The position numbers and the translations under genes were made by a program. Of a stretch of DNA of 64,000 nt, positions 19,601 to 21,979 are shown piece by piece (position 1 is the stretch's first letter; every line of letters starts with the position of its first letter). This stretch comes from Hormiphora californensis (lineage: Eukaryota; Animalia; Ctenophora): NCBI GenBank assembly GCA_020137815.1, contig CM035354.1:7068001-7132000 (forward strand). Reading direction: 5' to 3'. The notes beneath the pieces were generated by a model, which was given only the letters and a program-made list of their open reading frames with translations, was not told where the DNA came from and made no database searches.

Positions 19601-21979
19601 TTTTCGTATACTGTTGTGGTGAAAGTATGCCTTACCGCTGTATTATCCTCATTTGTAGCTGATATAACACCGTGTATTTTCTTGTCTCTGCTGTTTCTGA
19701 ACAGGAACACCGGGTATTTATTTAACTCAGACATGAAACTCGCAATGAAAATAAGCGGGATTTGTTCCGGGTATACCAGCTCTTAGTTAAACAAGTGAAT
19801 ATGAACAAGCCCCAATTATAACGGCCGGACATTAACTGAGACCCACCTGGGATGAGACACAATGAGATGGGTAAAATTCCCTGTCACACTCAGATCGTTC
19901 ACCGCCACAAACTTGTCATGGTTATCTTTATGAAGGAGCAGTCTGCACACCCCGACCAGGGAGACAAGACCAGCAGCACTCTCAAAATCAATACAAGTAT
20001 CCGTTCCTATGGAGATAAATATTAGATGCTGGCTTAATTTTAGATGGGGAACTTGTTATTCGATGTTGGCTTGTAGTAATGGTAGTGATCGGAAGGGGTG
20101 GCAAAAGGGGTACCTTACCTGTCTTCGCAGAGGGAAATATTTCTTGGAAAACTGTTTTCTCAAGTTTAGAGCAGGCTGGCTTAGCAGTGCCACAGACAGT
20201 CGTTACCTCTGATGGCACTGCAGAGAAGGGAAATATTGGGTTAATGTGATCAGAACATGTCGACCTGGACCCCCCCCTCGCATATGCTATGTGGTGGTAA
20301 ATCAGGTCACCCGATAATGTAACTCGTACAATAGGGCGACAGAGTTCGCTTACATTATTCGAGCTGCAAAGTGAAAATAATGTACAGCAGCAGTGTTTCT
20401 GTATACCCCACCTCCCAACTTGAGTTAATTCAAGTTGAGTGGCTAACCTACCAATTTGTGCGTCCTTGAAAGTTTTGAGGATATTGGCTTTCAGAAGGTT
20501 CTCCTCCAAGGGGAACCCTATCCAAGATGAACTAACTCCAGAGAGAGTACAGTAGGGTCTCCGTGCTAGGTTCTCTCGAGTCAGGATTACTGCAACAACG
20601 GCTTCTCCCCGAGTCACTCGACCAGCCAATAGCTCAGTTCCTGATTAGAGAGAGAGAGAGAGAGAGAGAGAGAGAGAGAGAGAGAGAGAGAGAGAGATAT
20701 AGCTTAGGAGGTATTATGCTCCGTCTTCATGAGCTTTAATTACCCCTTTTATTTTCCCCTCACTATTACCCATATGTACATTGTTCAGTTTACCCTTATG
20801 TACATTGTTCTACCTACCTTTACTCCGCAGGCCCTCCGGGCCCTCAGATCCAACAGGATCCGGGCTCGGGGGATTTAACCCTGTTCTCGCATGGGGCCTT
20901 ACGGCCCCATGTGGGAGTGGTGCGTGTAGTGGACCGAGAGAGAGAGAGACAGAGAGTGAGAGAGAGAGAGAGAGAGAGAGAGAGAGAGAGAGAGAGAGAG
21001 AGAGAGAGAGAGGGAGAGAGAGAGAGAGAGAGACTCTTACCAATTTGAATTCCAGGTTTGAAGATGAGATTGGTTGCACCCACGACTGCGTAATCACACT
21101 TCCCCTCAGAGAGATATTGTACAGCGGTGTGCAGTATTGCCCCACTTGATCCTCCACCTCCATCTACCGTCACACTGGGGTAGAATGAGGGGCCATATAG
21201 TTACAACGGGGATTATTCTAAAAATCCCAAAAAATAGTGGTTTTAGAGGGGCGGGGAGTGACAAGAGGCGTTTGGTGCCTGGCCATTAGGAATAAATTTA
21301 TCACTTGAACTCAGGCTATTACAACTAGTACATACCTATGGCCCTTGAAGTCGAAGGCATTGGAAACCCTGTTAGAGTACATAGCCCGACAATTTCCCAA
21401 CACCAGATACCCGTCTTGCTCTGCGGAAAATGAAATGGTGCAAACATGTTTATGAAGGAGCAGATAAATAATCAACAAAGACCAAATAAATTTGTATGAA
21501 GGAACTTACCATCTTTTCCACAAAGTGCCTCTCCCGTTTCACTACGGTTGCAGGCGACCCACACCGCAGTACGGGATCCCCTCATTGCCTCATGGATTAT
21601 ATCCACCATCCACTAGAGCCTCCCAAACAACCTGATAAACAGGAAAATATTGAGTAATTAATATCATGTAGTTCAGATTGAATTCCTATTTCCTGGGTAT
21701 TATACAAGAGATGAGGGATAACTGAGGGGGTTAACTAACCTCCAACATGAGGCGACATTGGGGATCCAGTGCAGCGGCCATTCTGCTATGAATCCTAAAT
21801 CCTCCCGAATCAAACAGCTCTATTCCAGAGAGAGTGGCAACATCCTGTTTGATGCCACAAAATCCCTGAGTCCATCTTGCTCCCTTGCCTGGGCCTCCCT
21901 CTGCCCCAGAGGCCTCCTCGTACCAGTGGGCTCTGTTAGGGAGCCGGGCTCCCACACCACACACAATTACAGAAGACAT
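4687..21979 (-). CDS. Multi-exon animal FAS-like type I synthase: degenerate KS-AT-DH-(pseudoMT/KR)-ER-KR-ACP, no thioesterase
   Basis: ATG at 21979 (MSSVIVCGVGARLP...FD...LDPQCRLMLE). KS: RAMYSNRVSNAFDFKGHSVTVDGGGGSS. AT: GVGSQW, GHSFGE, ALARG, AFHS. DH: GHSIEGSSICP and LDGLLQ. ER: ALNFRD, HCGAGAVG, GKHKGKVLI. KR: YLVTGAFGALG, GNAGQASYGYANS. ACP: FGLDSLMAVEL, then stop TAA at 4687-4689. The exons checked join in frame at GT-AG sites. The span includes a duplicated KS-AT-DH block. Confidence 0.93.
6545..7255 (-). mobile_element. 5'-truncated non-LTR retrotransposon (CR1/L2-group RT C-terminal region) in an ER-domain intron
   Basis: ORF 6662-7228 reads LVRPKLEYCSPLWSP...LEEVQRYFTRKI...YWERLKHLKIHSLQRRRER. 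A short-repeat 3' tail (gtaaatctt-like) lies near 6545-6575. Confidence 0.85.
8225..8370. repeat. (GA)n/(CAGA)n microsatellite forming most of an intron
   Basis: Read directly from the sequence, between two ER exons. Confidence 0.95.
11178..12422 (+). CDS. Intronless 414-aa orphan, disordered and S/T-P-rich, with basic NLS-like patches and a C-terminal CaaX (CVIQ); nested antisense in a DH intron of the FAS-like gene
   Basis: Long uninterrupted ORF preceded by a pyrimidine tract and ...ctatag. It lies between host exons ending ...VLNQREK (donor ~12520) and starting VLSLDGLLQ (~10576). Confidence 0.7.
   Translation: MHEFLISDSMFGDVTPIPQYRNRSPAAPPDLYNCRSRSPGDLYCSTSEELFCDLIPRTDPPEYNYYYLTPPSMIQGEKDEDVAEVTVMGRVDNATYTVDTPAQSPVPSWTPSWTPRQESEHFMTPCNKQQKDAKSPQNDATQPFVTPGQSSHDITPPFKTPLLHQPGITPGLDHAPISITPGFDHDTTSNTPIQQQNPGVTPPLATPRRMCGEAFIRARCIPESHGYGHNDSMMVNISDTTLYTTNDVTNDIMVTSRGNDVTVAAADSSSSPFLAGHGAAASSYSTSEDGTDELNSSPLTDVGVDTSLADELNCTLEINSDTSSVDVGTQADLLSYVIPPDPTTTETIKRAIVSPSYPANKRMRVTARPPLHNHRKRHHGYQRNGYHSYHGNHVENTFNDNLQLHPENASCVIQ
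13587..20400. repeat. Tandem ~3.4 kb duplication of the KS C-terminal/AT/DH N-terminal exons (13587-16955 vs 17025-20400)
   Basis: Paired ORFs 13487/17007, 14202/17691, 15399/18823 and 16539/19988. Exons are nearly identical; introns range from near-identical to strongly diverged. Confidence 0.9.
20647..21032. repeat. Two (GA)n microsatellites flanking a GC-rich hairpin segment in a KS intron
   Basis: (GA)n at 20647-20696 and 20935-21032; hairpin atggggcc-ttac-ggccccat near 20891-20910. Confidence 0.85.

Follow-up and report, generated by a model that had tools for sequence, protein, structure and literature searches.

A fatty acid synthase-like gene with a predicted dead ketosynthase under purifying selection in the ctenophore Hormiphora californensis

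Ketosynthase (KS) domains that do not condense are known from several systems. The chain-length factor (CLF; KS-beta) of type II polyketide synthases (PKSs) and the KS-CLF pair of polyunsaturated fatty acid (PUFA) synthases include a dead KS homologue that is kept by selection. The KSQ loading domain carries Gln instead of Cys and keeps both histidines for decarboxylation, while the KS0 of modular PKSs usually keeps the Cys for chain passing and has lost the first His. Here, a gene for a fatty acid synthase (FAS)-like protein is described in which all three of these KS residues are replaced. It was found in the ctenophore H. californensis, in a stretch of 64,000 nucleotides (assembly GCA_020137815.1, contig CM035354.1, positions 7,068,001 to 7,132,000 of the forward strand) that is called the window below and to which all coordinates refer. 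Like the CLF, the window protein has a KS homologue without a working triad; unlike the CLF, this domain carries Gly at the nucleophile position, is joined in one protein to a complete module for loading and reduction, and has no known active partner. As with KSQ and KS0, the non-condensing KS stands ahead of an acyltransferase (AT) and an acyl carrier protein (ACP), but it matches neither of them, as Gly and the loss of both histidines set it apart from KSQ and the loss of the Cys from KS0.

Metazoan FAS (FASN; PDB 2vz8, 3hhd, and 6rop) has the same domain order as the window protein, namely KS, AT, dehydratase (DH), pseudo domains, enoyl reductase (ER), ketoreductase (KR), and ACP. The motifs of AT, DH, ER, KR, and ACP are common to both, and both the ER exon and a model of the AT have FAS as their top hit in the PDB. 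The window protein differs from it by the loss of the KS triad, a deletion of ~60 residues, a shorter central region, and the lack of a thioesterase (TE), and the identity of its KS to that of metazoan FAS is at most ~35 %. The triad of FAS is Cys161-His293-His331, and C161G is used as a knock-out mutation of the murine KS; the KS pair also contributes more to the dimer interface of FAS than any other part (PMC6954729). The AFPKs (EcPKS1 and EcPKS2; PDB 9cq1 and 9ctk) are FAS-like modules that, as the window protein does, terminate in an ACP and have no TE (PMC11831141). As far as the available text of Lin et al. (2024) goes, they are known from molluscs and arthropods only (PMC10764717). The KS of AFPKs is active, whereas that of the window protein is predicted to be dead, and EcPKS2 has a dead ER, whereas the ER of the window protein looks intact.

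The gene lies on the minus strand (4687-21979), with its ATG at 21979 and its stop codon at 4687, and codes for 1888 amino acids in 35 exons if one copy of a duplicated block, discussed below, is used. The exon model was built by hand from six-frame translations. All 34 introns are of the GT-AG type, and after a one-base correction that is supported by reads, a single frame is open throughout. The encoded domain order is KS0-AT-DH-pseudoME/pseudoKR-ER-KR-ACP, without a TE. Pfam was run on single exons, nine of which were scanned for this gene; the hits followed the order KS, AT, DH (below cut-off), ER, KR, and ACP, and the two exons that gave no match both come from the C-terminal half of the KS.

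The KS is encoded by exons 1-7. Exon 1 (21740-21979; PF00109, E 2.4e-4) starts at the ATG, and its alignment reaches residue 1 of FAS; exon 3 (21336-21420; NRVSNAFDFKGH) was placed by the exon model and the alignment to FAS, and exon 5 (20452-20640), the middle of the KS, was found with the FAS KS in tblastn (E 0.001) and by alignment. The nucleophile elbow is located in exon 4 (21041-21174; PF00109, E 4.3e-7), where the alignment places Gly (codon 21155-21153, in VTVDGGGGSS) at the position of Cys161; this Gly is retained in the second allele. The first histidine of the triad, His293, is replaced by Cys (TTVCGTAK, exon 6, 20217-20119) and the second, His331, by Asp (TDTCIDFESAAG, exon 7, 20006-19847), while NDLSVTG stands at the position of NSFGFGG. 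These replacements were all listed in the initial annotation and were confirmed on the alignment of the spliced KS to FAS; it had also noticed two shortened internal segments, and ~60 residues are missing, relative to FAS, from the C-terminal half. The triad positions are all present in 49 of 60 comparators, which were retrieved mostly through their ER domain, and every one of these 49 has C-H-H. The KS appears to have decayed unevenly, its N-terminal half being better kept than its C-terminal half: 33 of 49 conserved columns are retained in FAS residues 1-200 versus 14 of 55 in residues 201-400, the part that contains the two histidines, the oxyanion loop, the lid, and the ~60-residue deletion. 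A putative optional in-frame exon of 63 nucleotides (20818-20880; flanked by AG/GT, 21 open codons) might fill part of the missing lid, and it codes for no Cys. No motif or alternative exon that would restore DTACSS or either histidine was present in the six frames of the 64-kb window, nor was a KS-active exon or a type III domain.

Outside the KS, all catalytic residues appear to have been kept, as had been proposed before. The AT (exons 10-14; 14220-15820 in copy B of the duplicated block and 19256-17715 in copy A; PF00698, E 1.1e-18) contains GHSFGE, Arg550, and AFHS, and its Ser, Arg, and His align with those of FAS. Structure prediction was applied to AT exon 10 alone, and the mammalian malonyl/acetyltransferase (MAT) was the best structural match of the model. 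His811 and Asp957 of the DH (exons 16-20; 10410-13712; PF21089, E 0.016, below its cut-off) align with the FAS His and Asp. The central pseudo-methyltransferase/pseudo-KR region (exons 21-24; 9009-10240) is shortened to 215 amino acids, compared with 255-434 in seven comparators. The nucleotide loops of the ER (exons 25-29; 7313-8874; PF00107, E 4.8e-11) and of the KR (exons 30-33; 5247-6501; PF08659, E 5.7e-29) align with FAS, as do the Lys, Ser, and Tyr of the KR and the Ser of the ACP (GLDSL; exons 34-35; 4687-5089; PF00550, E 6.7e-6). The stop codon follows directly after the ACP, and no TE-like match was found in the window (two TE queries in tblastn, best E 0.13). Since all three KS residues are gone, neither condensation nor chain passing nor decarboxylation is predicted for this domain, and with a dead KS and no TE, the protein is predicted to be unable to make palmitate from acetyl- and malonyl-CoA on its own.

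The statement in the initial annotation that the frame stays open does not hold for the window as assembled, in which an extra base at 21593, in exon 2 (21510-21631), halts translation at codon 94; it does hold for the gene as seen in read contigs. Two of the four read runs compared, X1 and X4, both from the same sample, cover this position, and the other two do not. The short-read contigs over 21593 lack the extra base at full depth (22.5/22.5 in X1, 70/70 in X4). The frameshift is an assembly error, and the true frame is open; exons 21-35 are open as assembled.

Exons 6-16 are present twice, as copy A (17023-20427), which is broken within exon 16, and copy B (13584-16965), which is continuous with the remainder of the gene. 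Self-comparison showed that the two form a tandem block of 3.4 kb with ~85 % identity; the initial annotation mentions neither this block nor the missing TE. Exons 6-7, with the two histidine replacements, code for the same protein in copy A (19847-20217) and copy B (16768-16398). The seven contigs shown that are specific to one copy have a depth of 35-48 in run X4, in agreement with the upstream single-haplotype depth of 28-57; merged contigs have a depth of 70-77. The bin over the junction of the copies is barely covered (depth 7 in X4, 6 in X1), and in a second sample, one contig runs from copy A directly into the DNA after copy B, omitting 3471 bases. In the KS and AT exons, the copies show a synonymous divergence of 0.19-0.20, about the same as that of the six listed haplotype differences in exon 4. 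The block is very likely made up of two alleles that were joined in tandem by the assembly, copy A being likely one and copy B likely the other. A true tandem duplication with alternative cassettes was judged less likely in view of the single-haplotype depth, the weak junction, and the single copy in the second sample; the block may alternatively be a heterozygous copy-number variant. An allelic synonymous divergence of ~0.19-0.20 (over 13584-21979) is very high for an animal and may produce haplotype misjoins elsewhere in the assembly. Contamination by prey or a symbiont was ruled out by the 34 spliceosomal introns with high-copy host repeats and by the presence of the gene in two samples from two studies under the same organism label.

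Strong purifying selection on the dead KS is evident from the allelic differences. The tables from which they were taken leave out differences close to contig ends, and the counts are therefore subsets. In KS exons 1-7, 36 synonymous differences stand against one non-synonymous difference (~250 and 776 sites; pN/pS ~0.009; binomial P 2e-21). Exons 1-4 contain 21 of the 32 listed substitutions, 20 of them synonymous and one conservative (Ile5Val); the four differences in exon 5 (among 40 of 202 rows) are all synonymous, and copies A and B differ in exons 6-7 by 12 synonymous and no non-synonymous changes. For the AT, the numbers are 45 synonymous and nine non-synonymous (pN/pS 0.063). The sole region without strong constraint is the short linker between KS and AT, with three synonymous and seven non-synonymous differences (pN/pS 0.64). 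A pseudogene was rejected, as the frameshift is missing from the read contigs and pN/pS in both KS and AT is far from 1. The earlier proposal of a half-synthase instead of a decaying pseudogene is supported by the open frame in the reads, by the 36:1 ratio in the dead KS, and by the five intact sets of active-site residues.

Ctenophores have been reported to lack enzymes of this kind. In the available text of Lin et al. (2024), the sole FAS recorded from sponges and from ctenophore data called "limited" is the mitochondrial type II FAS, no type I FAS, AFPK, or PKS is recorded from either phylum, and the origin of animal FAS is placed in ParaHoxozoa; "an unknown lipid biosynthetic route" is left possible for both (PMC10764717). 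The passages of a ctenophore lipid survey that were available do not treat de novo synthesis (PMC8627573). The survey by Lin et al. examined KS domains only, with a KS-HMM (hidden Markov model) threshold of 180 bits (PMC10764717). On two HMMs of our own, which are not those of Lin et al., the window KS scored 163 and 159 bits, and the lowest of 124 other KS domains, which had helped to build both models, scored 249 and 384. Judged from these scores, a dead and eroded KS may have been invisible to that survey. A literature search that had subscription journals outside its coverage turned up neither an animal FAS with a dead KS nor a ctenophore type I FAS. The window gene is real and under selection and codes for an apparently undescribed variant of the FAS/AFPK family with a dead KS, from a phylum in which this family is reported to be missing.

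When the ER exon was compared with the PDB, porcine FAS was the best match (148 bits), followed by an AFPK (96) and a bacterial PKS (93). A tree of KS, AT, ER, and KR (28 rows after 11 of 39 had been dropped; 1268 columns) placed the protein within a FAS-like superclade (100/100), at an unresolved base and outside a 13-row animal FAS group (96/99). The name of this group is our own and rests on the way its rows cluster, in other trees, with named proteins of spider and fly origin. The branch of the protein has a length of 2.1 changes per site, compared with a median of 0.64. A constraint joining it to the 13-row group was not rejected (p-AU 0.19), and placing it in the seven-row core of that group gave a p-AU of 0.069. 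None of eight intron positions in the ER-KR region is common to the gene and an animal FAS locus, which is weakly informative, since it could result from transfer and a later gain of introns as well as from intron turnover in ctenophores; vertical descent and transfer appear about equally likely. Searches for an orthologue gave weak negatives: a search with the AT exon had one match, a fungal one, among 1564 candidates of 246-2000 amino acids; the ER exon, compared with 1.84 billion representatives, gave no orthologue in the best 150 of 16,974 matches (top single-stretch identity 57 %); a three-exon profile had 30 matches among 7995 candidates, the best at 92 bits, compared with ~139 for simulated 55 %-identical orthologues; and metagenome scans gave 0 and 11 loci (best 56 %).

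One of the FAS-like relatives, P0110, is a protein of 2482 amino acids with a C-terminal type III PKS domain; animal FAS is a closer relative of this protein than modular PKS is. A sister relation of the window protein to this FAS-type III fusion, seen in a quick tree (SH-aLRT 93), was rejected because its support was <80 % in a careful tree. Six further FAS-like proteins (P0051, P0087, P0119, P0125, P0130, and P0138) fall immediately outside the animal FAS group in the tree and bear on the origin of animal FAS.

The best reading of the gene, with about an even chance of being correct, is that it codes for a KS0-scaffolded load-and-reduce homodimer that would need a condensing enzyme encoded by another gene. 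An external enzyme, such as a thiolase, an elongase, or a type III/FabH-like synthase, would make a 3-ketoacyl thioester; the AT would shuttle acyl groups between CoA and ACP and may load the 3-ketoacyl chain from CoA; KR, DH, and ER would reduce the chain to saturation; and, without a TE, the AT would return the saturated product to CoA. The dead KS pair would serve as a dimer scaffold, and selection on an inert KS would follow from the leading contribution of the KS pair to the dimer interface in FAS. Murine MAT is able to transfer octanoyl in addition to malonyl groups, by means of the same Arg (PMC6954729), and its kinetics with other substrates have been described (PMC11344766); the AT could, on this precedent, both load the 3-ketoacyl chain and return the saturated product. 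Several points weigh against this reading. Neither an orthologue nor, in the window, a condensing partner was found, and no transcript came to light in the one RNA-labelled run, which counts as evidence neither for nor against expression. The conserved Arg of the AT would suit malonyl loading equally well, which requires a KS acting on the ACP. As AFPKs also end in an ACP without a TE, the missing TE is no proof of return through the AT. The ctenophore data of Lin et al. are "limited", and no ctenophore name occurs in the 11 of the 18 supplementary files that were searched. The better-kept N-terminal half of the KS would also suit a heterodimer of the CLF type, in which the dead KS pairs with a KS-active type I paralogue and the window protein supplies loading and reduction and possibly sets chain length. 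That arrangement, the main rival, is considered unlikely. It would account for the selection on the N-terminal half and for the malonyl-binding Arg of the AT; the substrate tunnel of FAS extends to the dimer interface (PMC6954729), and it is structurally allowed that an ACP reaches the condensing domain on either of the monomers (PMC12058526). A KS-active partner would, however, exceed 180 bits by far, yet none is reported from the ctenophore data in the available text of the KS survey (PMC10764717). This absence of a KS-bearing type I enzyme argues against a type I partner. Likewise, no such partner is located within the window, and none of the 13 organism-named rows among the 30 three-exon profile matches is a ctenophore. 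Of the two options put forward in the initial annotation, the stand-alone load-and-reduce enzyme seems to fit the missing TE better than the CLF-like heterodimer.

A stand-alone ketosynthase, either type III/FabH-like or type II, might instead act on a malonyl or acyl group bound to the ACP; the pair would resemble a FAS-type III PKS fusion in split form. A type III PKS/FabH-like gene acquired by horizontal transfer, ML18354a, is known from Mnemiopsis (PMC6005172), and P0110, with its C-terminal type III domain, grouped with the window protein in the quick tree; the pairing did not hold in the careful tree, however, and the window contains no type III domain, so this arrangement is regarded as improbable. 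A non-catalytic or relic protein with a structural role, or a gene that is just starting to decay, would agree with the very long branch, the shortened central region, and the orthologue searches, in which none was found. It has very little probability in our view, since no catalytic residue has been lost outside the KS, pN/pS is low (0.06 in the AT, ~0.009 in the KS), and the frameshift is an assembly error. Returning to the load-and-reduce homodimer, it is only tentatively suggested that a ctenophore gene has turned into a KS-dead half-synthase in a lipid pathway of two components, the other being a condensing enzyme encoded by a separate gene, and that this pathway is unseen by KS-based surveys.

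Intron 19 of the synthase gene contains an antisense open frame of 416 codons (11172-12422, plus strand) without a Pfam match and absent from the protein collection. In intron 29 (6662-7255, minus strand) lies what we take to be the C-terminal remnant of a LINE-like reverse transcriptase. Short high-copy repeats occur in the introns at 13361-13400, 17514-17606, and 18320-18355, with a bin depth of up to 10,756 in run X4 versus ~50 around them.

Elsewhere in the window, a single-exon gene on the plus strand (50637-53927), ~29 kb from the synthase gene, codes for a rhodopsin-type G protein-coupled receptor (GPCR) of ~1093 amino acids with LDLa repeats. It has 59 matches, and the three that are organism-named are all from ctenophores (one Mnemiopsis leidyi, two Bolinopsis microptera); the two best are among four more that carry EukProt "sb/" ids and are presumably Pleurobrachia bachei gene models. 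Counting members with a record, two of its three best Atlas clusters are mostly Ctenophora, and the third is mostly Chordata. A large multi-exon gene on the minus strand (35290-46510) codes for many Ig domains, followed by segments that we take to resemble sushi and Cys-rich repeats, and exons at 29150-31520 (minus strand) may belong to a ZnT-type zinc transporter. Three long inverted-repeat elements are present, at 1-1243 (a 1243-bp palindrome, 96 %), 22812-23758 (312-bp terminal repeats, 97 %), and 24223-26589 (arms of 542 and 474 bp); the arms of the last flank what are, by our assumption, fragments of a piggyBac-like transposase. Tandem arrays with units of ~30 and 34 bp occur at 55700-57170 and 58973-60542.

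The presence in a ctenophore of a strongly selected FAS-like gene bears on the timing of the origin of animal FAS and on how ctenophores build or remodel fatty acids. The protein is a megasynthase whose condensing domain is naturally empty, which makes it useful for separating the role of the KS as a scaffold from its chemistry.

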